64,000 bases of DNA from NCBI RefSeq assembly GCF_011045215.1, contig NZ_CP049201.1; one strand, given 5' to 3'. Shown piece after piece: positions 13,353 to 39,378 of the stretch. A program made the translations under genes and the position numbers. How positions within the stretch are numbered: the first letter of the stretch is position 1; each line of letters begins with the position of its first letter. Under the pieces are notes generated by a model that worked only from the letters and a program-made list of their open reading frames with translations, was not told the DNA's origin and searched no databases. Source of the stretch: Escherichia coli (lineage in GTDB: Bacteria; Pseudomonadota; Gammaproteobacteria; Enterobacterales; Enterobacteriaceae).

Positions 13353-13571
13353 CTATTTACGATAGTATCTTCGCATTTGTAGATAGAGTTGTAACCAAAT
13401 CCCAGCACCTCCCCATAAGCCAACTACTGCGCCAATTATTCCGTATTTTACATACACCTCAGAAGGTATTGGTTCCCGAGCTATAAACCAGATACTAACC
13501 ACTATTCCAATAGAGCAAGTAGCTATAGATATAAGTAACAACTTAATAAGAAGTAGTAGATGTTTTTTCAT
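13353..13571 (-). CDS. cdiI: CdiI immunity protein (72 aa, two TM helices)
   Basis: Start overlaps the cdiA stop (ATGA at 13568-13571); hydrophobic two-helix protein. Confidence 0.7.
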   Translation of the reverse strand: MKKHLLLLIKLLLISIATCSIGIVVSIWFIAREPIPSEVYVKYGIIGAVVGLWGGAGIWLQLYLQMRRYYRK

Positions 13572-16500
13572 TTTTTGTCTCCATCAACTTCTTTTTGCGT
13601 TGCGCTGCTTGCACCTTCTGATACGAATGAACCAACAAATCCACCAAATGTTCCTGGTATAGAACTCATTTGGCCGCCTTGATACATACCGTATCCGATA
13701 GACTTTTCCGAATATTGCAGTGAATATTTACTGGCGTCCATTCCCAGTTGATTTTTGATGTATTGAGCTTCTAACTTATTAGTAATTGAAGCGCCAATGT
13801 TATAGCCAAGGCCTGTACCAGCCATGCTACCCACTACTGATGCGGTACTGTCCTGGCCTTCAATCTGGCTGCTCATGTAAGCGCTACCGGCACCCAACAA
13901 CTGGTTAGCGTAATATCCTTTCCCGGCTGTACCTACACCAGTCAAGCCTGACATCATGAAACTGAGATAATCGAACTTATCACCGATATTTCCCGTACCA
14001 ATTTGTACCGCACCATTAGCCCCATAGCTCAGCCCGGCACTAACAAATTTTTCCGTCAGCGTGGCTGATGACGTTAACAACGAACCCGCTCCGGCAACCG
14101 TACCCCAGTAATTTTCCGGTTCCCCGAAGAAAGCCAGAGCCCTGTCACCCTTCGACGTATTACTGTTCAGATAATTCAGGTCGTAGCTGTTGCCTTCAGC
14201 CACGTAATCCTTCACCTCCTGATTAGTCAGTGAACCATACAGCCAGCTAGGTCGGCCCGCCGCGCTGAGCCCGCCCTCAATATTCCATTTATCTTCCCCG
14301 GACAGAGCCGTCAGAGGATCTGCGGCCACATCAATGTGTAATTTCTGTCGGTTCTCTGCGCTTAATACAGCATATTTATTCTGAATATCGCCGCAGTCTC
14401 CACCCGCTTTACGACAGGCCGTCATTTCTCTGTCAAAAGCATGCGCCTCGTCGTAGCTGAGGTAGTTATTCTCAACTGTTGTCTTACCTGACTGTGCGCC
14501 GGCTACCGCTGAAGCCCCCGAGTCGCCCACCAGACCACCGGCCAGGCCGGCAGCAACCGTTGCCAGCGTGGAGACCGTCTGTTTCTCTGTCTCACTCAGT
14601 TCACTCACCGGTTTATCGTACATCTGTGTGGCTATCATTCCCACCACCTCGCCGGTGGCTGCACCTGCAGCACCGGCAAGAGCATTATTTCCCTGTGCCA
14701 GAGACAGTGCGGCATTCACCACGGCATGGGCGGCCACATTTGCAGCCTTATTCACCTCACCTGTAACCGGGTCTGTGGTCATGGTTTTCACCACTTCAGC
14801 CAGATACGGTGCTGCACCACCTGCCAGGGCTGCACTCAGATTACCGCCGGCCAGCCCCTGTACTGCTGCCGTTGCGGCCTGTATCGCCTGCTGGTATTTG
14901 CCTCCCGTTCCAAAACCGGAGGCCGCCATACCGTTATTGTAAGCCCGCTGTGCCACATCCTGTTCCGTGAACGGTTTTCCTGCTGCCTCAAGCTCTGCAC
15001 GGGCCTGATTCAGTGCTGCCGGGTCCCGTTTCGCTTTCTCACCGGCTATCTGTCCTTCCGTTCTGGCAATATCTGCCACCTGGTTACCAATCTCACCAAT
15101 GAGTTGCGCCTGCTGCAACCGCTGCTGCTCTTTTTCCCTGTCAAAGATGGGGGACAGCGTCTGGTTTGCATGCGCAACGTCACGGTTCAGGTCTGCCACA
15201 TCCTGTTTCTGGCTCTGTGTATCCCGGATAGTGATATTCCCGGCAGACACAGCCGACTGCGTGGTACTGTCCGCATGGCCTTCATGATTTGCACCGACCA
15301 GCAGATTGTTTGCCATGTTCCCCAGGAAATTTCCGGCAACACTGCCACCGGTACTGAGCCCTGCACTCTGATGTTCCGTTTTAAAGTCAGCCCGGTTTTC
15401 AGTGTCACTGAAGCCCAGTGTGCCGGTATCCAGCCTGTTTTTATCTGCCGTTGCCGTGGACGCAATCACCGCACCGTTCAGTTGTGTATGCTGTCCGGTC
15501 GTGACATCAAACCCGCCCCTGCCGGCAAAAATCCCTGTCTGCTCCTGCACACTGTCGTGGTTACTGTGCATTTTATCCCGGCTGAGGCTCACACTCGCCG
15601 AACCGCTCATGGACCCGAAAGTGAAGCTGCCTCCGGCGCTGGCATTCTGCTGTTTACTGTCATAATGGTCACTGTCCTGCTCACTGGTCAGTGTCAGATG
15701 GCGACCGGCATCCACTTTCACGGTTTCTCCACTGGCCTGCGCCCCGGTAAGTGTGGTGTCACGCCCACTGATAATGGTCAGCTGTTTTCCCGCATCCACC
15801 GTGGTTTCTGTATGGGTGGTACCGTTGCCTTTTTCACTGCCCTTACCCTGGTTTGCGCTGGCTGACAGACTGAAACCAGGCCCTCCGGGCCCCACACCGA
15901 TACCGACACCCACGCTGCCACCACTGGATGTGTTCTTTCCTTCCAGCTTTGACGTGTTTTCTGCTGATACCAGATTCACGTCACGGTTTGCCTGCAGCAG
16001 AACGTTGTTCCCGGCCTTTATCTGACCGCCCTGTATCGTCAGGTCACCATCCACGCCCTTCACGCCGGAGCCGGTGGCCTGAATACTGAGGTTATTACCT
16101 GCGGTCAGTGTACTGCCCTTCGCCACCGTCTGCTCTGACTGCTGTTCTGATTTCGAAGACTGGCTGCCGTAAGAGAGGCTGATACCCACGGTATTGTTAT
16201 TCTCTTTCTGGTTGCCCTGTGCTTCTGCCAGTCGTCCGGCCTGCACGGCCTGAGCCCCCGAGAGCGCGGCCTTCACCCCCTGCAGGGCTTCAAGCCGGCT
16301 GTTTCCGGCAGATTTCGCCGCCTGTACGGTCTCCACCGTCGTGTTCAGGGCGCTGCCCGCTGTGCCGGACAGGGCAAGCGTCAGACCGGAGGTTTTCTGC
16401 TCCACCGTATGTGTCTGCACATGCCGGTCAGTGGCGGCGGTAATGCTGACCTCCTTACCACTGAGTGCCATGTCCCTGCCGGCAATCAGGTCAGAGCCGT

Positions 16501-19500
16501 TGACGGTCAACCGGTTACCTGCCTGAAGGGAAACATCACCGTGAACACTCCCCACCGTGCTGCCTTTCTGCGTGGTGTCTGTTGCGGTGTCCGTGACCTT
16601 CAGACTCTGGCTGCCCACGCTGAATCCCACACCTCCGGAGCTCATCAGTCCGGATTTTTTCTCCTGTTTCAGGTGTGTTTCACGGTTGCTTTCTGTCAGC
16701 GTTCCGATACTCAGGTTATTTCCGGCAGCCAGGGAGACACGGTTATCCCCGGCCACACTGCTGCCCGTGACGTTCAGATTATGTCCGGCACCGATACTGA
16801 CCGTATCCCCGTTCAGTTCACTGCCCGTCATGGTCCGGCGGTCAGTGACATCATGCGTGGTAGTGGTGGTTTTCGATAACATCCCGCTGTTGCCGGTCAC
16901 TTTATGGTATTCATCCAGCGAGCGGGTATTCTGTGCACCGGTCAGCGTCACGTCATGACCCGCCATCAGGGCCAGGCCTTTCTGAGCTGACAGCAATGCC
17001 GCCTGTGACGTCATATCCCGTCCGGCGGTCAGCGTGACATCACCGTTACCGGCAAGCGTGCTGCCCGTACTCTGTGTGACGCCCTGCGACAGACGATTAT
17101 TTTTATCCCAGATAATATTGTCCTGCGCGGATGTGGTCACTGTGGAGAATGTCATATCCCTGCCGGCACTGAGTTGCGTCAGACTGTCCTTACCCTGGTT
17201 CACCACCGTTGCTGCCGTCAGGTTTATGTCCCGTCCGGCCTGCAGCACCAGTCTGCCCTGGTCATTCTGCACATATACGCCAGCCACACTGTCGATGCTG
17301 GTACGTTCAAAATGGTTCTGTCCGGCGTCACTCTGTGCCGTACGGGTGGTGGTGGTCAGACTGATATCCCGTCCGGCCATCGCCAGCAGGCTGTCCGTGG
17401 CCTGCAGCAGCCCGCCGGTACTGTTAATATCCGTCCGGGCCGTCAGGCTGACATTTGCTCCCTGAATGGTGCCGGCCTGGTTGTGAATGTTTTCTGCACT
17501 GAGCTGCACGGCCTGCTTCCCGGCCAGTTTACCGCTGTTAAACAGGTCACCATCCAGCTTCATCACCATGTCCCTGCCGGCAATCAGCGCACCGGCACTG
17601 TTCACATCACCGGGTTTTACACGGGCATACACCTGAGGTACCTGAACCGTCTGCGTGCTGCCGTCCGGCAGTGTCACCGTGGTGTTAACCAGCCAGACAA
17701 TATCACCGGTCAGTAACGCCATCTGCTCAGCAGTCAGCGCCACACCTGGTGTCAGGTTGTATTGCTTACCAAATGCAATACCCGCATCCATTAACGCCTT
17801 AAACTGCTCTTCATCATTACTGTATCCGTCCAGGTACCGTTGCCCGGTCAGAGCGACAACCTGCTCACGAATCAGACGCTGTTCGTAAAAACCATCCCCC
17901 AGGCGTTTGAGCATGTTATCCCCGTTCTGAGAAAACGCCTTCTGCATGTAATCACTGCCCAGCCACGTCTTCTGGTTCGTAAAACGCGGGTCCGTTTCAA
18001 CCAGATATGGCACATTCACTGCCGGATTTGTTTTAAACAGGCTGCTGTCCGGCAGACGGGTATCCGGCCCGGCAACATGGATACTGCCCTGAGGTGCGCT
18101 GACTTCAAACTGCTGCCCCGGCAACAGAATGACCGGTTCACCGGCTGACACCACCGGGCGAAGCGGTATCCGGTCAGTAACGGCTACTGTCGCATCCACA
18201 TTTCCGGTCAGTCCTGTCTGTACATCCGTTCCCTGTGGCTTCAGGGGAGAAAGCGTGACCTGGCTGCCCTGAACCTGTCCGTGGCTGGTGAGCTCTCCCG
18301 GCTTCAGCGTGATGGTCTGAATGACGGGGGGCGGCTCGTAAGGGGAAATTCTTTCCCCCTGCCTGTCATTTTTATTTTTTCTTTTTATCCGGTAATAATA
18401 TGTGGATGTCCCTTTATCAGTAACATGGCGCTCTCCGCTGACACTGACGTTTTCCACATCACCGGCCTGCATATCCAGCAGACCACCTGCAACCACCTGG
18501 CTCTTGTCATTAAGCAGTTTGTCTGCCACAACCGTCATGCCGGCACCGGACAGTATTTTCCCCGGGTCGGAGTCTTTTACCCGGGTTTCCTCCACGGTAC
18601 GGGTGTATTCATATTTTGTGAACCGGTCGTTGTTATGTCCGGTATCATCCGGCGTGTTCAGGTTCAGCAGTCCATCAGAGGAGTTGTTATCAATGAACAC
18701 CCCCTCATCTTTTGCATTCCAGCGGACATCTGACCCGCGATGCTGATACTCAGTCACCTTTTCCGTGGAAACCACCACGCGCTCCGTGGTGAAATGGTCA
18801 TTGACGTTATTGATTTGTCCGGCACTCAGTACCAGATATCCGGCGGCTTCAATAGTGGCACTGTGATTATTCAGTACACCGGTTTTACCTGTGGCGGTGC
18901 CATTCGCATCCAGCGTGCCACCGATATGCATATCACCTGCACTGTAAATCAGGCTGTGCGTCCGGTTATTCAGGGTCTGTACCCCCAAGTCCACACGCTC
19001 ACGCCCGGCCAGCGTCGCCGCCACGCCATTTTCTTCCAGATTATTAAATGTGGCAGCACTGACACCAACAGCATCGCCGTAGATTCGCCCGGTACCGGAA
19101 TTCGTCAGGGTGTTCGCCTGAAGATGCGTATATTTCCCGTCAATCAGCCCACGGTTCAGCAGTGTGTCCGTCACGTTAAGCCAGGTCTGCCCGGCACTGA
19201 TTTCACCTTTCCCGGTGTTTTCAAGGCGGATGCTGTTCAGGTCAAGTCGGCTGCCTGCCAGCAGGCTGCCGGTATTAGAGACATCGCCATTAACGGAAAG
19301 CGTAAGGTTTCCGTTCGCAATAGTCTGACCACTGTTACTGAACGCTGTGTTACTTTTCAGCGTTATATCGCCCGGGGAAAGCAGTTTCCCGTCACCACCG
19401 AGCTGACCGGCATCCACAGAGACTGACTGCCCGGCCTTAACCACACCGTCACGGTTCGAAAACGCCAGCTGACGGCCACTGACAGACAATGTCGCGCCGG

Positions 19501-22500
19501 AAGAGAGCACGCCATCATTATTACTGAGCGTCCTGTCTGCCATAACCGTAAGCGCCCTGTCTGCCAGAATACTGCCCTCCTGGTTATCAAGGTCCTGCGT
19601 CGTGATGTGTATTGTCTGCGCTTCCAGCCCCTGGCCGGTATTCTGCGTGTGGCGATTGATAAACTGCAGGGCGTTCAGCGTAATGGCAGAACCACTGCGA
19701 ATCAGACCAGAGACGTTGTCCACAACGCCCCGTACACTGTCGAACAGAATGTCGCCCACAGACTGTATCTGTCCGTGGCTGTTCTGCAGGCCTCCCGTAT
19801 GCAGACGGAGTTCACCTTCACTGACCAGCCGGCCACCCTCACGGTTATCCAGCGAGGTGGTGCTCAGGTCAGCTGTCGTTTTCGCCCCCACGGTCCCGCC
19901 CCGGTTATCCATTGCTCCGGTACTGACAGTCAGTTCCTGCAGGCTGTTCAGCGTACCCCCTCTGTTATCCAGCGTCCGGCCTGCGCTATTAATGCTGATG
20001 CCTTTCCCCTGAATAAGACCGGACTGATTGTTCAGCGCCAGACTGTTCCGGCCGGGCAGACCGGTCGCCACAATCTGACCATTCGCCACCACCTGACCGG
20101 ATGTATTGTTAACCACGCCTGCAGTCAGGGACAGCGCATCTCCCGACAAAAGCACACCGGCAGTGCTGTCCAGTGTGCCGGCATTCAGCGTCATCGGGCC
20201 CTGACTGATAACCCCGCCCCGGTCACCACTGTTACGGTTGCTCAGTGTGTCAGCACGGAGATTCAGTGTGGCACCGCTCTGTATCAGACCACCTGCATCA
20301 TTGCTGATATCCGTCGAGGAAAGGGTCAGTGACTGCTGTGCCACCAGTCTGCCGCCCTGATTATCAGAGCGGGTGACATCCAGCCTGCTGTTACCGTTGC
20401 TGACCACCGTCCCCTGCTGATTTTCCAGCACATTCAGGTGCGCATTCAGGTCCCCGCCGGCGGCAAGCGTCCCTTCCTGATTACTGACATCGCCACCACT
20501 CAGCAACATATCCGTCCCGGCCTTCAGTGCGCCTTTCTGGTTCATCAGCGTACCTGACGATATCTGTAATGACGCCTGACTCCCCAGCACGCCCTGACGG
20601 TTATCGAGCGTTCCGGCGTTCAGGGTCATATCCTTCTGACCCGCCATAAATCCCTGCTGGTTATTCAGCATACCGGCCCGTACTGTCAGGGTACCGGCGC
20701 TGCTGATACCACCCCGTGTTTTCGTGTTCCGGTTACTGAGAACCCCGTCCTGTACATCCAGCGTCATGTCACTGCCGGACTGAATCAGACCATCATCAGA
20801 GACCAGTTCGCTGCCTGACACAGACAGCGTTTTCTGTGAAAGCAGTCTGCCGGACGTATTATCCAGCGCACCATCCAGCGTCACGGACAGCCCGTCAGAC
20901 ACCACCGTACCCTGGTGGTTATTCAGACTCCCTGCCGAAATATCCAGCCTGCCGGCGGACTCCATTCGTCCCTCAGTATTGCTGACAGCCTGCTGTGTTT
21001 TTATCCTGCCCGTTCCGGCAGCAGCTGAAATCAGTCCGTTGTCGTTATTCAGTGCCTGTGTATTAATCAGGATGTCACGGCTGGCAATCAGACTTCCCTG
21101 CTGGTTATCCACGGCGCCGGTTGTCCTCACCTGCAGACTACCTGACTGCGCCGCCTGCACTTTCCCCCTGCGATTATCAAGGCTCAGTGCATCCAGGCGC
21201 ACCGCGCCATTTGCCGCAAGCAGCCCTTCCCGGTTATCCACGCTTCCCGGCAGACTCAGCGAAAAATCCCCTGTTCCCGTCTGAATCAGACTGCCTTTAC
21301 GATTTGACAGGCTCTGTGCCGATATCTGCAGTGTGTCGGCATTTACCGTGCCACCATTATTGCTGAACTGCCCGGCAGTCCGGGCGGAAAGCGTACCGGC
21401 ACTCAGTTGTGCATTCTGTGTGGACAGATTTCCGCTGCCTGCATCCAGCTCAGTATGTTGTCCCTGTATCCGGCTGTTGCTTAAATCCAGCCCCTGCCCC
21501 TTCAGTTGCATGTCCCCACCGGACAGAACCTGTCCGTGTGCCGCCAGTTCGCCGGTGGTACTGACAGTCAGGTTGCCCGCTGCCGCCAGACGTCCGTCAT
21601 CTTTCACCCCGGCGGCCAGCAGACTCCGCTCACCGCCGGTCAGACGCGCTGTCTGAATCCGGGTGTTGCGGCGTGATGCCACAGAGCCTGTATGGGTGAA
21701 TGCACCATCACTCTGTATCTGCGTATCCTGCCCCGCATAAACAGAACCACTGTTATGCAGCTCCCGGGTTGTCGCCAGATGCACATCCGTTTTCGCACTG
21801 ATACTGCCACTGTTTTCAATACGTCCGTCAGCCGTCAGGGTAACCGCCCCTGCCTGCGCACCAATATGACCGGCGTTACGAACCCCCACCCCCGTTTCCG
21901 TACCGACAAGGCGAATTTTTCCGGCATACATTCCACCAAGGCTGGACACATCCAGCGCCACCTGTGGCTGCGAAGAGGCATCAGCGGCTTTTTTCTCAGT
22001 CTGCCCGTGTGCAATATCCACATTGTTACGTCCGGTGGTCACTTTCAGGTCCTGCGCCCAGATACCCGCATTAATCTTCACAGACCGGGCAATGATATCG
22101 GTATAATCCGTGCGCGAGGCATCCATCCCTTTGCCCGTAATCTGAATCTCACCACGTTCAACACTGAATCCGGTCAGACTGCCGTTTTTCATCTGAGGCT
22201 GCCCCGTGGTCAGCGTGGCCCGGTTCGCATTAATAAAACCGCACCCGTCGCAACTGATGCCGGCCGGGTTCGCAATCACCACCTGCGCCTTTTTCCCGGC
22301 AACCTCAACAAAACCGTTCAACTGGCTGGGATTGCGACTGTTCACTTCATTAAGAATGATTCGGGCCTCTCCCTTCGCCAGCCACGGGTTACCGGCAACC
22401 ATGCCGCCCAGTTGGGTCTGCACATTTTTATGCGAGTTATTCAGAATGACACCCTGATGACTGACATCAAACTGACTGTAAGTATTGTGCGATACCCCAC

Positions 22501-22804
22501 CTGCAGAAGGTGTCTGGATATTGACCTGAGGAATGCCGCTGGCTGTCTGCGTAATCGTGGGCTGCTGATGCCCCGGTGCGCCATGGTCTGCGACAATGCC
22601 TGCAGCACTGACAGAATGCACCATCCCCGAGGCCAGCCACAGGGAGAATGCAAGCGATGTGACACGGCAGATACGTTGCCTGCGTGGATATCCTGTACGG
22701 GAGGAGGGTGATGCACCGGCGCGACCGGAACGGGCAATATCTGCCACCACCATCAGCATTCCCCGGGCTTTGTTAAAAATAATGCGGTAACAATTTTTGT
22801 TCAT
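13568..22804 (-). CDS. cdiA: CdiA contact-dependent inhibition toxin / TpsA exoprotein (3078 aa)
   Basis: Extended signal peptide MNKNCYRIIFNKARGMLMVVADIARS, TPS domain, long filamentous-haemagglutinin repeat region, VENN motif at 14465-14476 followed by a 298-aa Gly-rich C-terminal toxin domain. Confidence 0.95.
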   Translation of the reverse strand: MNKNCYRIIFNKARGMLMVVADIARSGRAGASPSSRTGYPRRQRICRVTSLAFSLWLASGMVHSVSAAGIVADHGAPGHQQPTITQTASGIPQVNIQTPSAGGVSHNTYSQFDVSHQGVILNNSHKNVQTQLGGMVAGNPWLAKGEARIILNEVNSRNPSQLNGFVEVAGKKAQVVIANPAGISCDGCGFINANRATLTTGQPQMKNGSLTGFSVERGEIQITGKGMDASRTDYTDIIARSVKINAGIWAQDLKVTTGRNNVDIAHGQTEKKAADASSQPQVALDVSSLGGMYAGKIRLVGTETGVGVRNAGHIGAQAGAVTLTADGRIENSGSISAKTDVHLATTRELHNSGSVYAGQDTQIQSDGAFTHTGSVASRRNTRIQTARLTGGERSLLAAGVKDDGRLAAAGNLTVSTTGELAAHGQVLSGGDMQLKGQGLDLSNSRIQGQHTELDAGSGNLSTQNAQLSAGTLSARTAGQFSNNGGTVNADTLQISAQSLSNRKGSLIQTGTGDFSLSLPGSVDNREGLLAANGAVRLDALSLDNRRGKVQAAQSGSLQVRTTGAVDNQQGSLIASRDILINTQALNNDNGLISAAAGTGRIKTQQAVSNTEGRMESAGRLDISAGSLNNHQGTVVSDGLSVTLDGALDNTSGRLLSQKTLSVSGSELVSDDGLIQSGSDMTLDVQDGVLSNRNTKTRGGISSAGTLTVRAGMLNNQQGFMAGQKDMTLNAGTLDNRQGVLGSQASLQISSGTLMNQKGALKAGTDMLLSGGDVSNQEGTLAAGGDLNAHLNVLENQQGTVVSNGNSRLDVTRSDNQGGRLVAQQSLTLSSTDISNDAGGLIQSGATLNLRADTLSNRNSGDRGGVISQGPMTLNAGTLDSTAGVLLSGDALSLTAGVVNNTSGQVVANGQIVATGLPGRNSLALNNQSGLIQGKGISINSAGRTLDNRGGTLNSLQELTVSTGAMDNRGGTVGAKTTADLSTTSLDNREGGRLVSEGELRLHTGGLQNSHGQIQSVGDILFDSVRGVVDNVSGLIRSGSAITLNALQFINRHTQNTGQGLEAQTIHITTQDLDNQEGSILADRALTVMADRTLSNNDGVLSSGATLSVSGRQLAFSNRDGVVKAGQSVSVDAGQLGGDGKLLSPGDITLKSNTAFSNSGQTIANGNLTLSVNGDVSNTGSLLAGSRLDLNSIRLENTGKGEISAGQTWLNVTDTLLNRGLIDGKYTHLQANTLTNSGTGRIYGDAVGVSAATFNNLEENGVAATLAGRERVDLGVQTLNNRTHSLIYSAGDMHIGGTLDANGTATGKTGVLNNHSATIEAAGYLVLSAGQINNVNDHFTTERVVVSTEKVTEYQHRGSDVRWNAKDEGVFIDNNSSDGLLNLNTPDDTGHNNDRFTKYEYTRTVEETRVKDSDPGKILSGAGMTVVADKLLNDKSQVVAGGLLDMQAGDVENVSVSGERHVTDKGTSTYYYRIKRKNKNDRQGERISPYEPPPVIQTITLKPGELTSHGQVQGSQVTLSPLKPQGTDVQTGLTGNVDATVAVTDRIPLRPVVSAGEPVILLPGQQFEVSAPQGSIHVAGPDTRLPDSSLFKTNPAVNVPYLVETDPRFTNQKTWLGSDYMQKAFSQNGDNMLKRLGDGFYEQRLIREQVVALTGQRYLDGYSNDEEQFKALMDAGIAFGKQYNLTPGVALTAEQMALLTGDIVWLVNTTVTLPDGSTQTVQVPQVYARVKPGDVNSAGALIAGRDMVMKLDGDLFNSGKLAGKQAVQLSAENIHNQAGTIQGANVSLTARTDINSTGGLLQATDSLLAMAGRDISLTTTTRTAQSDAGQNHFERTSIDSVAGVYVQNDQGRLVLQAGRDINLTAATVVNQGKDSLTQLSAGRDMTFSTVTTSAQDNIIWDKNNRLSQGVTQSTGSTLAGNGDVTLTAGRDMTSQAALLSAQKGLALMAGHDVTLTGAQNTRSLDEYHKVTGNSGMLSKTTTTTHDVTDRRTMTGSELNGDTVSIGAGHNLNVTGSSVAGDNRVSLAAGNNLSIGTLTESNRETHLKQEKKSGLMSSGGVGFSVGSQSLKVTDTATDTTQKGSTVGSVHGDVSLQAGNRLTVNGSDLIAGRDMALSGKEVSITAATDRHVQTHTVEQKTSGLTLALSGTAGSALNTTVETVQAAKSAGNSRLEALQGVKAALSGAQAVQAGRLAEAQGNQKENNNTVGISLSYGSQSSKSEQQSEQTVAKGSTLTAGNNLSIQATGSGVKGVDGDLTIQGGQIKAGNNVLLQANRDVNLVSAENTSKLEGKNTSSGGSVGVGIGVGPGGPGFSLSASANQGKGSEKGNGTTHTETTVDAGKQLTIISGRDTTLTGAQASGETVKVDAGRHLTLTSEQDSDHYDSKQQNASAGGSFTFGSMSGSASVSLSRDKMHSNHDSVQEQTGIFAGRGGFDVTTGQHTQLNGAVIASTATADKNRLDTGTLGFSDTENRADFKTEHQSAGLSTGGSVAGNFLGNMANNLLVGANHEGHADSTTQSAVSAGNITIRDTQSQKQDVADLNRDVAHANQTLSPIFDREKEQQRLQQAQLIGEIGNQVADIARTEGQIAGEKAKRDPAALNQARAELEAAGKPFTEQDVAQRAYNNGMAASGFGTGGKYQQAIQAATAAVQGLAGGNLSAALAGGAAPYLAEVVKTMTTDPVTGEVNKAANVAAHAVVNAALSLAQGNNALAGAAGAATGEVVGMIATQMYDKPVSELSETEKQTVSTLATVAAGLAGGLVGDSGASAVAGAQSGKTTVENNYLSYDEAHAFDREMTACRKAGGDCGDIQNKYAVLSAENRQKLHIDVAADPLTALSGEDKWNIEGGLSAAGRPSWLYGSLTNQEVKDYVAEGNSYDLNYLNSNTSKGDRALAFFGEPENYWGTVAGAGSLLTSSATLTEKFVSAGLSYGANGAVQIGTGNIGDKFDYLSFMMSGLTGVGTAGKGYYANQLLGAGSAYMSSQIEGQDSTASVVGSMAGTGLGYNIGASITNKLEAQYIKNQLGMDASKYSLQYSEKSIGYGMYQGGQMSSIPGTFGGFVGSFVSEGASSATQKEVDGDKK

Positions 22805-23356: not shown

Positions 23357-25096
23357 TCAGAAATCCCGGAACAGATTAAAACCGGCTGTCACATCACTCG
23401 TCATAAAACCCGCCGGTTTTGAAAACGGACGACCGATGAAAACGTCATAATCCGTACTGAACAGTTGCCCCCTCAGCCCCACAACACCACCGGCCAGATG
23501 ACGTCCCACCAGGTATTCACTGCCGGCTCCCCCCACCTCGCCGTAATCCATTCCCAGATATAACGCCTGCTCCGGCAGTGGCGTACGCCAGGCCAGGTCG
23601 TTGCGGATATACCAGCCGTTACTGGCATTCAGCGTTCGCTCCCCGTCAAAACCACGAACCGTCCAGCGGTTACCGATGGCAAACTGTTCCTGTGGGGTCA
23701 GCGGGGTATTGCTCAGCTGGCGCTGATACCGGAAGGAATAACTGAAGGGCTGCCCTGCAAGGGTAAAGGGCAGATTAAAGGATGCATTCAACTGCAGGAT
23801 CTTACTGAGCGCCGTTGCCTCACCGAACGTTTCTTCCGGCGCCGGCTGTGCACCAAACCAGCGGGTTCCCCGTTGCCAGCTGACACCAGCATCCAGTGTG
23901 GCCTGAGAAATATAATGACGGTGCTGCAGCCCAAGTCGCCAGGCCGCTGTCTGCCGGCGCTGCACCTGGATTTCCGTATCATTAATGTAGTTACGCGACC
24001 TGCGGGCCTGAACATCGTAGGTCAGCACCGTTTTCTGCGTCCCGTTACGGTGCAGTACCCGGCTCAGCTGCATACCCAGATTCTGACTCTCGCCACTGTA
24101 CTGGTAATCCTCAACCGCACCAGCTACCGTCTGATGGTAATCGTAATCACTGGCGGTGACGGAAAACTGCCAGTAGCCGAAAGGCACAGAGTAATGGGCC
24201 GTGTAGTTTTTACTGCCCTTACCCCCGTAATGTGGAAAATTACGGGTGGCAGAAACATACAGCAGGTCACTCAGGGAAAAAGGATTATCCAGAGAAAATG
24301 TTATACCACCGAGATAACGCCCTGTGCTGCGGGTACCTGAATCATCAAGCGAAAACCCCAGTCGCCAGTATTTGTCCTGTTTGCGGGTAATAAGAATGTC
24401 ACTTTCCCCTGGCTGCTCACCGGGTACAATTTCCATATCAGCCTGCACACCCGGCAGTCGTTGCATATTCTCCAGCCCCTGCTCAATGTCCCGTAAATCC
24501 AGCAGAGAACCTTCGTGTGCCGGGAATGAGGAATACAACTGAATATAGTCATCACTGTCCGGTGTCAGACGCACATGTCGCACAACACCGGGAATAACAA
24601 CCAGCCGGAGGATACCGCTTTTTAAATCCTGCGAAGGTGCCAGAACACGGGTGGTGACATAACCATGATCGACCAGACGGTTCTGCAATGTACTCATCAG
24701 CAGATTAATTCCTTTCGCCCCCAGGCAATGCCCGACCGCCCCGTTGGCGATTTTTTGTAAAGGCAGCCAGTGTGGTAACGCATCAGCCCCCTCCAGTTCC
24801 GTCTGTTTAATCTGAAAACAGGGCGTTTCAACAGGAAAATTAATCTTACGGGCAAAAGAGCCAGGTGCAGAAAGGCGAACATCAGGGGCTGAAGGCGTCA
24901 GTTGTTGCTCAAGGGCTTCCTGACGCTGCTGCTGAATGATAAATGCATTATCTCCGCTACGCCGGACATCCGCGGCCTGAAGAGATAAAGGCGATAATAA
25001 AACAGACATCAGTGTCAGTGACAGCAAGGACGGACAGCGCCGGAATACGCTTTGTTCCTCAGCCCTCTCGTTCCTGCAACATAATTTTCCAGTCAA
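23357..25096 (-). CDS. cdiB: CdiB, TpsB/ShlB-family outer-membrane transporter
   Basis: 579 aa, signal peptide, POTRA plus beta-barrel, C-terminal aromatic residue; 9 bp upstream of cdiC. Confidence 0.9.
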
Positions 25097-29225: not shown

Positions 29226-29459
29226 TCATGCTGCTGACCCTCGTGATTCTTCGATTCGCTGCTGCATCCACTGCTCCACTTCGCTTTTGTACCAGCGGCT
29301 GCTGCGACCCAGTTTGATGGGTTTAGGAAAATGGCCTTCACTGATCAGCCTGTAAAACCATTTATCGGTCATGCCGGTGAAACTGGTGATGTAGTTCATG
29401 TCGATCAGGGGATCGTCGGCACGCAGCAACACGCTGTCGTGGCTTATTGTGGTCAACAT
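29226..29459 (-). CDS. alpA: AlpA-family phage/island transcriptional regulator
   Basis: ITSFTGMTDKWFYRLISEGHFPKPIKLGRSSRWYKSEVEQWM matches the AlpA HTH core. Confidence 0.7.
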   Translation of the reverse strand: MLTTISHDSVLLRADDPLIDMNYITSFTGMTDKWFYRLISEGHFPKPIKLGRSSRWYKSEVEQWMQQRIEESRGSAA

Positions 29460-29527: not shown

Positions 29528-30133
29528 TCAGAACGGCCCTGCAGATCCGGGATACCCGGGATTACCGGCGAGGCAACGGGCTTCCGGATCGCACACATCA
29601 CGACGAGCGCGGGCGAAATCACTGAACGCCCAGATAAGGTCTTTAAACAGGGCTTCGCAGTCCGGTGACCGGCGATCCAGTACCACATCCCGGGTGATCT
29701 GCTTCTGGTACGGCTTTGCTTCACCTGGTGACGCGAAGCCCAGCACGTTACTCCAGGCATCCAGAATCAACCGATCCAGCTCAGGGCCATCGAAATACTC
29801 CTGTCTGACGCACAGCACCACGTGGTATTCCGGTTTTTCAGGATGACGGGTCAGGAGCCAGCAGAGGTCACGTCCGGGTGTTGCATTCATCAGCGCACTG
29901 ACGGTTTCGATAAAATCCATACCAAACCAGGTCTTTCTGCTGCTGAAGGTATTGTCATATTCACACGGCAGACGAAGCAGGATCCGCCGTATCCGGGAGC
30001 CGGACTGCTCACGCAGCGCACGCTCAAGGACACCGATAACTTTGCTCTGATAAGATGGCCAGAAAGGTGCCAGGCTATAGTCGAAATAAGGGATAGTATT
30101 CATAAGATATGCTCCGTTATGCGCAGCCCACAA
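29528..30133 (-). CDS. Inovirus Gp2-like / YfjJ-YagK family protein (putative HUH Rep-like)
   Basis: 201 aa; RILLRLPCEYDN and EYHVVLCV (HxH-like) motifs. Confidence 0.45.
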   Translation of the reverse strand: MWAAHNGAYLMNTIPYFDYSLAPFWPSYQSKVIGVLERALREQSGSRIRRILLRLPCEYDNTFSSRKTWFGMDFIETVSALMNATPGRDLCWLLTRHPEKPEYHVVLCVRQEYFDGPELDRLILDAWSNVLGFASPGEAKPYQKQITRDVVLDRRSPDCEALFKDLIWAFSDFARARRDVCDPEARCLAGNPGYPGSAGPF

Positions 30134-30927: not shown

Positions 30928-32516
30928 GCTGATGACTCCTGAAAGTTAATGACGTTTTAAGTGCTGTAAGCGAATTAATGCTTTCGCTCATAATCAGATC
31001 TAAAACGGTAATAACTTACAGACGGTATTTATCAGGCATGCTGTAACAGAATGGATACGTCGGTTATTAACGACACGCAACGTTGTGCTGAAGGGAATGG
31101 GTCATCTGATGGCATTGACTAAAGAAATGAGATAAACGAGGAGTAAAAAAATACAGATTCAATAAAACACAATGAAACACTGCAAAATACGCAATAAACC
31201 CCCACTACCAGGAGATTAAGAAACATATTACGACCAATAACATCATAAACTACAAACTTGCTCTCAGTGAGTCTGAAAAAACGTGTACAAGGCCAACACA
31301 TATCTGTAACCTGATAAAATCATACACTCTCATTTAATCTGTTAAAAACAACTCATGTTCAAGATATGAACGTTAACGGGTACACGGTACCAGAATGAAA
31401 CATACCATTGATGGATAATTTTCATTTTGTTTAACATAAAAGATAATCAGAAACGAACAGACATAATCAGGAATTCACCCTGTTAATTTCATTGTTTATC
31501 CTGCGCTGTTAAACATGACGGAATCATAGACACCTTATCAAAGAGTAAACATTCAGTTAATCAGTGATGACAGAAGAATTGATGTTCACCAGAATAGTTA
31601 AAACACTTCAGATAAACAATTATTGTTAAACAATGATAACGCATGACGGACAAGATTAAAATCAATTACTGTCTCACTGAACATGAGAACAGATGAATAT
31701 CTGTCAGTAGAATGGTAGAGAATACACCTGAATATCATATGAGTTACAATCGTCATGATTGAGATATGGATGGAGAGGATATTGTTATAATAGTGACAGT
31801 GAAGACTGGAGAAGGACATGAGTGAGTATAACTGGATGAAAATAATAGTAATGGAATGTGTAAAGATAGAGAGGAGAGATGAATGACAAAGATGGATAGA
31901 AAATAAAGAGACAGATATTAATTATAGTAATAAACCTAAATTAAAATTATCCATATCTGATGAGTAAAAATAAGAAATCCTACGTCCTGAATACAAGCCT
32001 AAGAAAAACATTCTCTTACAGAAAAAGATCAAATCGTTTTTCTTCAATCTCCCATTGAAACCTGAACAGCATCTCTTGCCAGTAACAGACTGATAACCAT
32101 TCATTATTCATAATAGAGACCAACATCGTCATATACGCCGGCACTCATCACGACAAGAATCAAAAAAAGTTATATATAAAAACTCACATAATATGGTTAT
32201 ATGATTAGCTTCAGACATGTTAAAAATAGCATTTCTGTTCACTTTCTTTTTATAAAAAACGAAAGCCATTCTTCCACCAGTGCGCACACTCCTGTATTCA
32301 ACCAACTCTGACAGCAGGTCATTATGAAAACAAAATCAAATCACATATATAGTGCATGTGCTGCTACTGTTGCTACCGTAGCGATTTTTTCAGAGAAATT
32401 TTCGTTCATGCCCCATAGATGGTGAACATTTGCACAGATGCGGGATATGCAAAACGCCTTACCACCAACCTTCGAATGAAGGTTGATTTTTTTCGTTTTA
32501 TCTGTGTTAGTTTATT

Positions 32517-36671: not shown

Positions 36672-37412
36672 TCACCTGCCATCCAGCAAACGCCCCGGCC
36701 CACGACTGCAACCATAATTACGTTGCCCGGAACCGTCATGCTGCTTCGTCTCATATTTCACGAGATAACTGGCTCTGTTCCGAGCTTTCTGCATCGCTTC
36801 CACATCACCACGCTTGATCCAGAGAACAGCGGCTTCACCAGACTTTTTGTCTGAAGCCTTCCTGGTTTCAGAACATTCACCAGGCACAGGCGTATCATCG
36901 GAAGAAGGGCGAGCATCAGATGATGTCGGTTTACGGAAAGGCGTTGACAGCGTCCGCCTGGAAAAATGAACCAGTCCATTACCCTGCCAAGGCTCAAGAT
37001 GCAGAGCACTGCACCATGCCAGTTGGATCAGCGTCGCCAGCGAAGAAGGAACGGTGAAATCCCCTGGCGAGCACCAGGTATCTTTGTTGAGCAGTAATAT
37101 CACGTGATAATGTTTCCTGCCTTTTTCCTTGCCAAACTCCCGACACCAGAAATAACGCAGAGTGGTTGCGCGCACACGCTTGTTGGCACGTCGTTTTTTC
37201 CGCTGGTAAGCCTGAATTTTTGCTTTCAGGGATTCGAAAAAACGAGAAATCACCGCTGAATCTAAATCGGTATCCATGATGGTGGCAGGCATATACTCAG
37301 GAAAACGTAAATCCACCCGAATTAACGAGACGGCACGGTGTTGCGCCAGGGCACTGTTGAGAATGCTTTCAAAACGGGATAACCAGTAAGCATTGTGTAT
37401 TGGTTGATTCAT
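36672..37412 (-). CDS. Inovirus Gp2-like / YfjJ-YagK family protein, third paralogue
   Basis: 246 aa; SLIRVDLRFPEY and HYHVILLLNKD (HUH-like). Confidence 0.45.
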   Translation of the reverse strand: MNQPIHNAYWLSRFESILNSALAQHRAVSLIRVDLRFPEYMPATIMDTDLDSAVISRFFESLKAKIQAYQRKKRRANKRVRATTLRYFWCREFGKEKGRKHYHVILLLNKDTWCSPGDFTVPSSLATLIQLAWCSALHLEPWQGNGLVHFSRRTLSTPFRKPTSSDARPSSDDTPVPGECSETRKASDKKSGEAAVLWIKRGDVEAMQKARNRASYLVKYETKQHDGSGQRNYGCSRGPGRLLDGR

Positions 37413-38289
37413 GATGAGAGATCTCCGTTGATTTGGATTGACTTCACATCATTAATCACTGTGGTAAAACTTTACGGCATCCCGCCATTGAGCAACGCCA
37501 ATGGCTCCTGATTAAAACAGAATGAATCCCCCACGAAGAAAAGATAAACCTACACGCAGAGTGAAACACACAACAACGGCATAAATGGTTTTTAAAAACT
37601 ACAAAGCCTGAAGGGAAACGGATCAACAAAACGTGCAAACAAAACGTCAGAAACGCAATCAGAACGCTTTCTGGCTCTGTAAATCAACAACAACACCAAA
37701 ACCTACAGCTTAACCACACAACTCAATCACAGAGCCGAATAGCGCGCTTAAAACCTGTTTACAGATAACCCCGCCACAAGAACAAAAACCACCAATATCA
37801 GAATCGATTTTCTTATCCTGAAAACGTTACTTTTCAACACACCATAAAAACGATTAACCATCAATAACGTAAATCTCATCTGAATCAAAACACCAGAACC
37901 AATCATCACGCTTTTCCTGAAAAGAGCCTTATGATGAAGATAATCACCTTGCGCTGAGAAAAAACACCAGGGCCAGTTAATCATCTCATCAATCTCATTG
38001 CTACAAAATCATCTATAAAACCATTTAACAAAATCATCGTAAGCACACAGTAAATCACGCCAGGTTATCTCAGCCGGATTTGCGTTTTACATAAAAACAC
38101 TTGTCTCAGGTTAACGACTAAAAACACGAAAACTCATAAAAGGTTAAATGTAACATCAGTAAAATCGAATAGCATATTGACTGCTTAAACAGGACAGGGA
38201 GTTTTGTAGTGACGTTAACTGATTTTAGTTAGCGTAAAGATTTACTAAACTGGATGTGTTTCAGACAAAGCAATGTGTATAACAATGCT

Positions 38290-38415
38290 TAATGAAAACA
38301 CTTGTAGAATTGTTTATGAAAACACGTGCATGTCTGGTAAAACACTTAGTAGAAAATACGTGTATAACACTTACTGAAATGCTTAGTAAAAATACTGAGT
38401 AAAATACGTGTATAT
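38290..38415. repeat. Degenerate direct-repeat (iteron-like) array
   Basis: Five or more copies of GAAAA(C/T)AC(T/G)T(G/A)(T/C)A spaced about 15-25 bp apart (38294, 38317, 38337, 38352, 38400) in an ORF-free AT-rich region. Confidence 0.4.
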
Positions 38416-39378
38416 AGTATCATACCGACATTCTCAACATCTTCAGACATCCATGCAGACTGAGTGTTGATTTCAGTTTTTCACGGCCAGCATGGATCTT
38501 TACTGGTCAAAAAACAGACAGATTTACTCTGGAATTATTTTTCCAGGCCTCCCTGAAAAGACCATCCGGAGCACCCCGTTCGTCAGCTTCCATGTTGTCT
38601 TTTACCCCCGGAAAGTGATCGCATTTTCCAGCCAGAATGACAGCCATACTGATTATGACGTCTCTCCGGCCCCTTCACATATAACATTCATGTCAGTCAT
38701 TTCTACTGTCTCACTCACCGAAATTCTCCATGCCGGATGAAGCAATTGTTCTGAACTGAGCAGAAGCATAACAGCACACACAAGGAAACGACTGTGCCAT
38801 AGATCCCGGAATCAGGATCTTAATGTCAGGAAAACAGTGACGACCGGGGATAACTAACAACAACCTGAGTACAGAAGAAAGCTTTCCCGCGCACGCCACC
38901 ATCTTATGTAAGAGGATATGATGCCCCCACCTCAGAAGAACCGTCTCCGGGAGAACTTCACTGCATCAAAAATCCTTTTGCTGAGTTCTCATTCCCCATC
39001 ATGGCAGCTACAGACATGCCCTGACAGAGCGTATGCGCATTGAGAGAAATAACCATAAATGATGAGAAGACACTCTATATGACGACAGCATGTTGAGGTA
39101 TAAAAAATATTCATCTAAATATTTTAAGAATATTTTTTATTGCAAATTACATGAAATAACATGATGTCAATATAATTTTGTCAAATGCGTGAGATTAATC
39201 ACATTGTAATTTTATGTATTTTTATGTAAATAAGAGAAAATGATCCATGAGCGTTATTGCATTTTTTCTGATGTATGGATAAAAGGGGGATTCAGGCAAA
39301 ATTTACTGACAGAGGAGATGATAAGAGGGGGTTAAAGAGTTCTATAGAGTTGGTTGTGCATTTATACCCAGGGAGTTC

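Follow-up and report, generated by a model that had tools for sequence, protein, structure and literature searches.

The stretch of Escherichia coli DNA analysed here (64,000 nucleotides, hereafter the window) contains a purine-biased, C-depleted tract for which the most fitting description is a low-complexity, hypervariable segment in the leader of an island module common in E. coli. The tract lies in a gap of 1.59 kb between a yfjI-type and a yfjJ-type gene, both encoded on the minus strand, and it is neither a new RNA gene nor a pseudogene. A comparison of its homologous copies shows a purine/pyrimidine segment of low complexity that evolves fast and forms the distal end of the ~1-kb untranslated region accompanying the yfjJ-type gene. 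It changes mostly as purine-rich units, a 9-bp variable-number tandem repeat (VNTR) included, are inserted, deleted or duplicated. Regarding its function, we tentatively favor a slippage-generated leader segment that may act as a Rho entry site (rut), a possibility well short of even odds; functionless low-complexity DNA is nearly as likely.

Composition of the tract

The plus strand of positions 31761-31935 (175 nt) consists of 79 A, 7 C, 49 G and 40 T. Its purine share (73%) is the highest in the window (mean 48%, sd 6%), and its C content lies at the extreme low of all 175-nt segments of the 64 kb, the absolute minimum being the six C of the segment that starts at 31755. The C-poor run itself spans about 31755-31934 on the plus strand with six C in all, and none of the 175-nt segments of the 64 kb shows a depletion of G comparable to this depletion of C. 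Against the 17-19% C of the gap around it as background, the binomial probability of finding seven C or fewer is 6e-8 to 4e-9. Simulations gave the same picture: throughout 100 sequences of 64 kb generated by an order-1 Markov model every base occurred at least 15 times per 175 nt, and in a simulation of the gap only (n = 2000) the minimum of any base per 175 nt was 9 or more. The purine-biased, C-depleted tract first noticed in a sequence-only reading of this DNA is real (7 C in 175 nt, 73% purine, chance P ~1e-8), and the anomaly is statistically extreme. Read as RNA from the minus strand, the tract is composed of ~45% U, ~28% C, ~23% A and ~4% G. H-DNA or triplex formation was considered and rejected, since the longest unbroken purine run reaches only ~12 nt (by eye).

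Genomic island context

The island that surrounds the tract is a CP4-57-like E. coli genomic island whose gene set is the conserved island backbone, and a flanking type III secretion region shares 99.9% identity with E. coli chromosomes. The genes around the gap and the features within it are listed in Table 1. The order of yfjJ, the 201-aa hypothetical gene and the gene of the 77-aa HTH protein is the same in the annotated E. coli loci that keep those genes, and in one locus (L007) IS elements replace the genes downstream of yfjJ. The TIGR01764 excisionase match of the 77-aa protein falls under its curated cut-off, as do the Pfam REP_ORF2-G2P and YagK_YfjJ_C matches of the yfjJ-type gene.

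Table 1. Features of the yfjJ module and its neighbors in the window
Feature	Position	Strand	Basis
77-aa AlpA/excisionase-type HTH protein	29226-29459	-	Pfam Phage_AlpA, synteny
201-aa hypothetical protein, downstream of yfjJ	29528-30133	-	Synteny
yfjJ/YagK-family 'inovirus-type Gp2' gene, 188 aa	30361-30927	-	Annotation in homologous records
Remainder of the ~1-kb untranslated upstream region	30928-31760	-	Travels with yfjJ in BLAST matches
Conserved inverted repeat/hairpin, ends at the yfjJ Shine-Dalgarno sequence	30939-31021	-	Inverted repeat search, RNAalifold
Hypervariable tract, purine-rich (+) / pyrimidine-rich and G-poor (-)	31761-31915	-	Composition, indel-rich alignment
Position homologous to the 9-bp VNTR (GGAGAAGGT)n	31766-31781		Comparison with other copies; no perfect unit in the window
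Best 78-nt rut-like segment, 23 C and 1 G, regularly spaced C	31834-31911	-	RhoTermPredict RUT criteria, re-implemented
Nearly invariant AT-rich motif (ATTAATTATAGTAATAAACCTAAATTAAAATTATCCAT...)	31916-31959		Alignment of 12 BLAST-derived E. coli loci
YfjI-family DUF3987 gene, 541 aa	32517-34142	-	Pfam DUF3987 E 4e-73, homologue annotation

Of 5426 complete E. coli genomes, 1566 carry a match to the gap sequence (1567 records), some of them in as many as five copies, and the copies in these genomes total roughly 1900; strain C5 (NZ_CP010122, 96.7% identical) is one of the carriers. The sequence is also found on a few plasmids that bear island fragments and has no match in a phage collection. 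In E. coli K-12 the yfjI-yfjJ spacing amounts to only 152 bp and the gap region is missing, and yagK likewise lacks it. A YfjJ protein search of species-representative genomes returned two loci only, and nothing was found in the literature on yfjJ, yagK and yfjI that covers the present intergenic region. The gap, which has 30-40% GC along its whole 1.6 kb, had been described as ORF-free. This is roughly right, as no ORF exceeds 73 aa in 30928-32516 and all 14 annotated homologous records are gene-free over this interval, but 32324-32495 on the plus strand holds a conserved ORF of 33 aa (32324-32425) together with a terminator of its own. A second Gp2-family gene is present in the window (36672-37412), with a gene-free region of ~2 kb upstream of it (37413-39378). 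A parallel architecture of this second gap was considered and discarded, for it has no comparable tract, its C-poor segments (39124-39370) being a T-rich promoter region beside a plus-strand gene.

The intergenic origin upstream of Ff gene II and the origins located 3' of rep in phage-inducible chromosomal islands offer an analogy by which the tract might belong to a replication or transfer origin for the DUF3987 (helicase-like) and Gp2/Rep-like proteins. The tract does have a DUF3987 gene on one side and on the other a gene similar to Rep_ORF2-G2P / YagK_YfjJ, and as in the Ff intergenic origin a long non-coding region directly precedes an inovirus Gp2-type gene, an arrangement that the second Gp2-family gene also shows. 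Additionally, there are three intergenic sites (31583, 32421 and 36452) with the P4 alpha-type octamer TGTTCACC. On the other hand, this octamer is not enriched (3 vs 2.6 expected) and never falls inside the tract, the gap holds no iteron arrays or tandem repeats, the two gene-free gaps share no sequence, and the Pfam matches of yfjJ are those under cut-off. An initiator site should moreover keep its sequence, which is just what the tract, the most variable segment, does not do, and unlike the Ff gene II origin the tract area is hypervariable and has no conserved hairpin set or nick-site-like element. On this evidence an origin appears very unlikely.

Variation among homologous copies

Around 100 homologues entered the comparison, some from E. 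coli genomes and plasmids and others from gut metagenomes: the window and 11 E. coli loci in a BLAST-derived alignment, and 80 further metagenomic loci fetched with the motif ATAGTAATAARCCTAAATTAAAA. The tract is the least conserved and most indel-rich segment upstream of yfjJ (pairwise identity 0.1-0.5). Its 35 distinct variants measure 72-201 nt, and all of them have 2-5.6% C and 72-78% purine. The sequence-only reading had named an absence of conservation as what would speak against its proposal; such an absence is found for the sequence and not for the composition, as C-depletion recurs in every variant. A 9-bp tandem unit, GGAGAAGGT, is present once, three, six or seven times in 17 of the 97 copies, and length steps of 9 bp are seen in certain lineages; the other differences between variants are block duplications and deletions of purine-rich units. 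The locus therefore has the head-to-tail units in strain-variable number that characterize a VNTR locus, and the window copy does not: TRF finds no tandem array in it, its autocorrelation stays inside the shuffle range, and the direct repeats of the gap are just short two-copy families of a type that often represents chance matches.

The tract thus resembles bacterial VNTR or simple-sequence contingency loci in the 9-bp unit, which has 1-7 copies among otherwise near-identical loci, and in the block duplications and deletions of the remaining tract. It differs from them in that most of the tract, the window copy included, forms no perfect tandem array, and in its position ~850 nt from the start codon, where no simple frame or spacing switch is apparent.

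The indels also bear on the proposal that the tract is a decayed remnant of a protein-coding gene. Short ORFs overlap it, for instance one of 73 aa at 31598-31819 on the minus strand, and one frame of 15-19 codons is common to the window and the L003 and L004 variants (by eye). However, no ORF is kept across the variants, and most length differences are not multiples of three. In the shared frame ~10 of 15 aligned codons differ in amino acid (by-hand translation), an open stretch of 19 codons has an estimated P of ~0.13 at the composition of the tract, and no ORF in the gap has a Pfam match. A coding remnant is the least probable of the explanations considered here.

RNA structure and protein binding

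A non-coding RNA had been suggested as well, with a covariance-model scan as a check. Rfam gave no match over the tract even at E<=5 and no gathering-level match anywhere in the 64 kb; the matches in the gap (E 0.7-2.9) are at chance level and none covers the tract core, and a scan for tRNA and tmRNA found none. RNAalifold on 16 diverse copies predicted no conserved secondary structure over the tract, with a consensus energy of 0 on either strand (z undefined). These results argue against a discrete structured RNA. The tract would most plausibly be transcribed as part of an untranslated leader or of read-through RNA.

A purine-rich RNA from the plus strand, such as a CsrA sponge rich in GGA or a transcript antisense to the leader, would agree with the nine GGA triplets of the window copy, a richness in GGA that recalls CsrB and CsrC, and with the weak sigma-70-like plus-strand sites at 31567-31595 and 31633-31662. 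Nevertheless, the number of GGA triplets follows from composition (211 observed vs 182 expected over the 35 variants, most P>0.3), their positions vary among copies and no hairpins present them, promoter-like sites are not above chance (6 vs 8.3 expected), and no plus-strand terminator follows the tract. The tract is therefore unlike CsrB and CsrC, having neither GGA stem-loops nor a promoter/terminator frame nor an Rfam match; a CsrA sponge was rejected, there being no stable structure and a GGA number that composition explains, and a plus-strand RNA of any of these kinds is most unlikely.

Nucleoid-protein binding, the remaining proposal of the sequence-only reading, would suit the gap and not the tract. 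In its broader form this explanation holds that the tract acts at the DNA level, either as an AT-rich block bound by H-NS/StpA (or IHF/Fis) or as a VNTR spacer that sets the length between the adjacent AT-rich motif and downstream sites. The long, gene-poor gap in a CP4-57-like island, with its low GC content, is like H-NS-silenced island regions and fits H-NS-type silencing of island DNA; H-NS family genes lie near some copies of the module, and the 9-bp length steps of some lineages would suit a spacer. The tract itself, however, has the same GC as its flanks and is not AT-richer. The H-NS motif TCGWTAAATT is absent from 31761-31915 within 2 mismatches and is not enriched in the window (130 vs 128 expected), and phased repeats were not detected (autocorrelation in the shuffle range). 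Unlike H-NS sites, the tract is strand-asymmetric and has no nucleation motif, and since binding to the duplex predicts no purine/pyrimidine asymmetry between strands, it leaves that asymmetry unexplained. We consider a DNA-level element unlikely.

The upstream region and its edge

About 1.0-1.08 kb upstream of yfjJ is kept with the gene in BLAST matches, including those in which the rest of the island has been truncated or replaced, and positions 30928-31750 show 77-96% pairwise identity. The inverted repeat that ends at the yfjJ Shine-Dalgarno sequence gives the strongest conserved-structure signal upstream of the gene (z -11 to -12.5 on either strand). Pairing of a CUCC anti-Shine-Dalgarno motif with the yfjJ ribosome-binding site was rejected, as the motifs vary among homologues (by eye). 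For yfjJ itself, 400 pairwise comparisons of copies gave medians of 0.015 (dN) and 0.10 (dS); against this dS the divergence of the upstream region is 0.07 in its proximal and 0.15 in its distal part. The upstream 1 kb is thus conserved about as much as synonymous sites, so its conservation alone is no evidence of function, and the constraint on 30928-31760 that these rates suggest is weak at best. The tract diverges by ~0.47 over aligned columns, 3-5 times faster than the synonymous sites of yfjJ, a rate that would be consistent with slippage together with alignment ambiguity.

Directly beside the tract lies the AT-rich motif of Table 1, whose ~40 bp are invariant or nearly so in the 12 BLAST-derived loci, a set chosen without regard to the motif. 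Within ~15-45 nt to its right the copies cease to be homologous and continue in at least six unrelated contexts, which places the upstream edge of the shared yfjJ module at the motif. It contains the palindromic -10-like sequence TATAATTATA, so the direction of the -10 is ambiguous: the minus-strand hexamer, TATAAT at 31926-31921, is TATAAT or TATTAT across all variants, and the plus-strand hexamer is TATAAT in ~80% of variants and ATTAAT in the window. No -35 is recognisable, and owing to this poor -35 the promoter scan did not call the motif. A promoter reading of the motif is accordingly weak and would come mainly from its coincidence with the module boundary, as expected of a promoter's upstream edge.

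A putative Rho entry site

If the tract is a Rho entry site, the following sequence of events may be proposed. Minus-strand transcripts would start at the TATAAT of the motif or read through from yfjI and would carry 70-200 nt of U/C-rich, almost G-free RNA that is unable to fold. Such an untranslated, unstructured and G-poor RNA would be an ideal rut site at which Rho could load and then end transcription inside the leader. Termination, together with H-NS-type silencing, might in this way keep the yfjJ, hypothetical and AlpA-like excisionase genes silent, or shield them from transcription that arrives from upstream. As only composition counts for Rho binding, sequence and length would be free to drift. 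It is well established that Rho and H-NS jointly silence AT-rich foreign DNA in E. coli.

The composition of the minus strand points in this direction. A C/G ratio of 8 is reached over 150 nt and one of 23 in the best 78-nt segment, the top values of both strands in the 64 kb; elsewhere on the minus strand of the window no region attains a C/G of 4. RhoTermPredict defines a RUT as 78 nt with C/G>1 and a C every 11-13 nt, and a C/G of 3 or more is found in just 37 of ~4500 validated predictions (PMC6407284). The window copy has a segment of this kind, as do 67 of the 69 distinct homologues (median C/G 7.7). The minus strand carries 40 YC dimers in 175 nt, and its RNA (31761-31935) has a minimum free energy of -2.6 kcal/mol over the 175 nt, which with the consensus energy of 0 and the lack of a conserved ORF describes an unstructured and untranslated segment. 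Additionally, with both flanking genes on the minus strand, the pyrimidine-rich, G-poor side of the tract is the sense strand. The adjoining motif offers its -10-like hexamer on that strand in every variant, and the composition persists in all 35 variants although their sequences diverge by roughly half.

Against a Rho entry site stand the modest share of C (only 28%, with U dominant at 45%), the weak and directionally ambiguous promoter reading of the motif, the transition counts given below, which lie close to the ratio of sites, and the distal upstream region, which diverges about as fast as synonymous sites. Within 150 nt downstream of the tract a pause element GGN8YG is absent in the window and present in 6 of 69 homologues, and no conserved hairpin that could serve as a pause site is predicted over that distance.

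Known rut sites and Rho-dependent leader attenuators (lambda tR1 with rutA/rutB, the mgtA and corA leaders of Salmonella, the E. coli rho leader) provide a close comparison. The tract is like them in being untranslated over at least 78 nt and unstructured, with C far in excess of G and a regular spacing of C, in keeping its composition and not its sequence, and in its leader position on the sense strand of the putatively regulated genes. It is unlike them in being U-rich, with C at ~28%, in having no pause element that could be found, in a length that is polymorphic by slippage, and in its position at the point where the putative transcript would begin.

Two further proposals concern the genes downstream. 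Slippage, including that of the 9-bp VNTR, might tune the length of the rut and with it premature termination, which would make expression of the yfjJ, hypothetical and AlpA-like excisionase genes, and hence excision or stability of the island, heritably variable; this extension of the Rho entry site is highly speculative. A tract tunable in this manner would be a contingency locus that works through transcription termination and not through promoter spacing or reading frame. AlpA-type processive antitermination on the leader was dropped, the 77-aa excisionase-type HTH protein being unlike P. aeruginosa AlpA, which is larger, with functional residues up to 142, and has the binding element GGGACG (PMC9371919).

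Functionless low-complexity DNA as an alternative

The alternative to a Rho entry site is that purine-rich simple sequence arose once and, in island DNA evolving neutrally, then grew, shrank and diverged by replication slippage, so that the C-depletion is inherited and not selected and leaves expression unaffected. Neutral origin of this kind is only slightly less probable than a Rho entry site. It is in line with the rate of the tract relative to yfjJ synonymous sites, with the transition counts, which are without significant avoidance of C, and with a distal upstream region that shows no clear constraint. The observed length range (72-201 nt) and the true 9-bp VNTR also agree with it, and a C content of 2-5.6% would be about what neutral point mutation of a C-free ancestor yields at such divergence.

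The column counts in the tract show A/G variation in 37 of 85 purine columns and C/T variation in 6 of 27 pyrimidine columns (Fisher P=0.07), and among ungapped allele groups the 46 A<->G and 12 T<->C differences come near the 73:27 ratio of sites. On the other hand, a flank-calibrated test found new C alleles at half of the expected number (13 vs 25, P=0.007), solely when scaled for the variability of the tract, a scaling that is confounded in that misalignment inflates this variability. Neutral low-complexity DNA also does not explain why the tract always directly adjoins the element that is best conserved in this region. Moreover, if the minus strand is transcribed, an unstructured RNA of 70-200 nt with C/G >7 is expected to bind Rho whether selected or not.

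Implications

Under either of the two leading explanations the tract would belong to known kinds of element, a rut-like leader segment or a VNTR-containing spacer. If it is neutral, the compositional anomaly amounts to a slippage-driven hypervariable spacer; its surrounding 1 kb is no more conserved than synonymous sites, and the case counsels caution against over-reading such a spacer or its flank as an ncRNA gene. If it is a Rho entry site, the motif, the G-poor tract and the leader would together constitute an unannotated cis-regulatory unit upstream of an excisionase-type regulator gene, and they would provide a concrete silencing mechanism for an island module that is very widespread in E. 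coli (1566 of 5426 genomes).

Non-coding and repeated elements around yfjJ

The 1.6-kb gap between yfjI and yfjJ had been described as ORF-free in the sequence-only reading, which holds only roughly, since an ORF encoding 33 aa lies within it on the plus strand and, together with a terminator, forms a unit at 32324–32495 (see table). The ORF is convergent with yfjI, and 12 of the 13 distinct homologues, with nucleotide identities as low as about 85%, preserve its length and frame. It carries no annotation in any record seen; searches of its product against Pfam, NCBIfam and PADLOC gave no significant match. A weak Rfam match to OmrA-B (32412–32490) overlaps the terminator and is probably nothing other than the terminator itself.

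Features located in the island and its surroundings
Feature	Coordinates	Strand	Remarks
3078-aa ORF	13568–22804	−	Part of island cargo
579-aa ORF	23357–25096	−	Part of island cargo; adjacent to 3078-aa ORF
Inverted repeat	30939–31021		21 nt, 81% complementary, 41-nt loop; stops at the yfjJ Shine-Dalgarno sequence
33-aa ORF, MKTKSNHIYSACAATVATVAIFSEKFSFMPHRW	32324–32425	+	Inside the supposedly ORF-free gap
Intrinsic terminator, good	stem 32466–32485, then T-run	+	3' of 33-aa ORF
Other Gp2-family gene	36672–37412	−	Pfam YagK_YfjJ_C, E 7e-37
Second gene-free gap, ~2 kb	37413–39378		Upstream of other Gp2-family gene
SipB/YopB-type translocon gene (type III secretion system)	53411–56335		Just outside island

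The inverted repeat next to yfjJ gives the top conserved-structure signal of the upstream region of this gene (alifold z-scores between about −11 and −12.5 for each strand), and the segment 30928–31060 is, at 96–100%, better conserved than the beginning of the coding region of yfjJ. Further upstream, 31411–31432 is a 22-nt inverted partial copy of the conserved boundary motif (86% complementary to 31933–31954, 500 nt away). Two sharply different haplotypes were found at 31293–31450, one in the window and the homologous copies L001 and L003–L005, the other in copies L006–L012. The left repeat copy is confined to one of these haplotypes, a pattern that indicates mosaic recombination within the yfjJ leader.

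The octamer TGTTCACC, the type I iteron bound by the phage P4 alpha protein, occurs at 31583 (+), 32421 (−) and 36452 (+); all three sites are intergenic and flank the DUF3987 gene yfjI, and their total in the 64-kb window is not above chance (3 found, 2.6 expected).

Other island regions and strain variation

The second gap shares no sequence with the first. The plus strand of its proximal part (~37500–38150) is strongly A+C-rich, and the homologous islands L001 and L003 harbor a comparable unannotated gap of roughly 1.3–1.75 kb. At the position matching the two cargo ORFs, the related locus L003 encodes a two-partner secretion activator of the ShlB/FhaC family, as well as a fragment of a filamentous haemagglutinin. 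The translocon gene shows 99.9% identity to E. coli strain PapM-32-1 and was found in only 738 of 5426 genomes.

Finally, a 9-bp unit, GGAGAAGGT, varies in tandem copy number (1, 3, 6 or 7) at the equivalent of window ~31766–31781 among otherwise near-identical loci (L004, L022, L037 and related copies). The array is a strain-variable VNTR and could be used as a typing marker.
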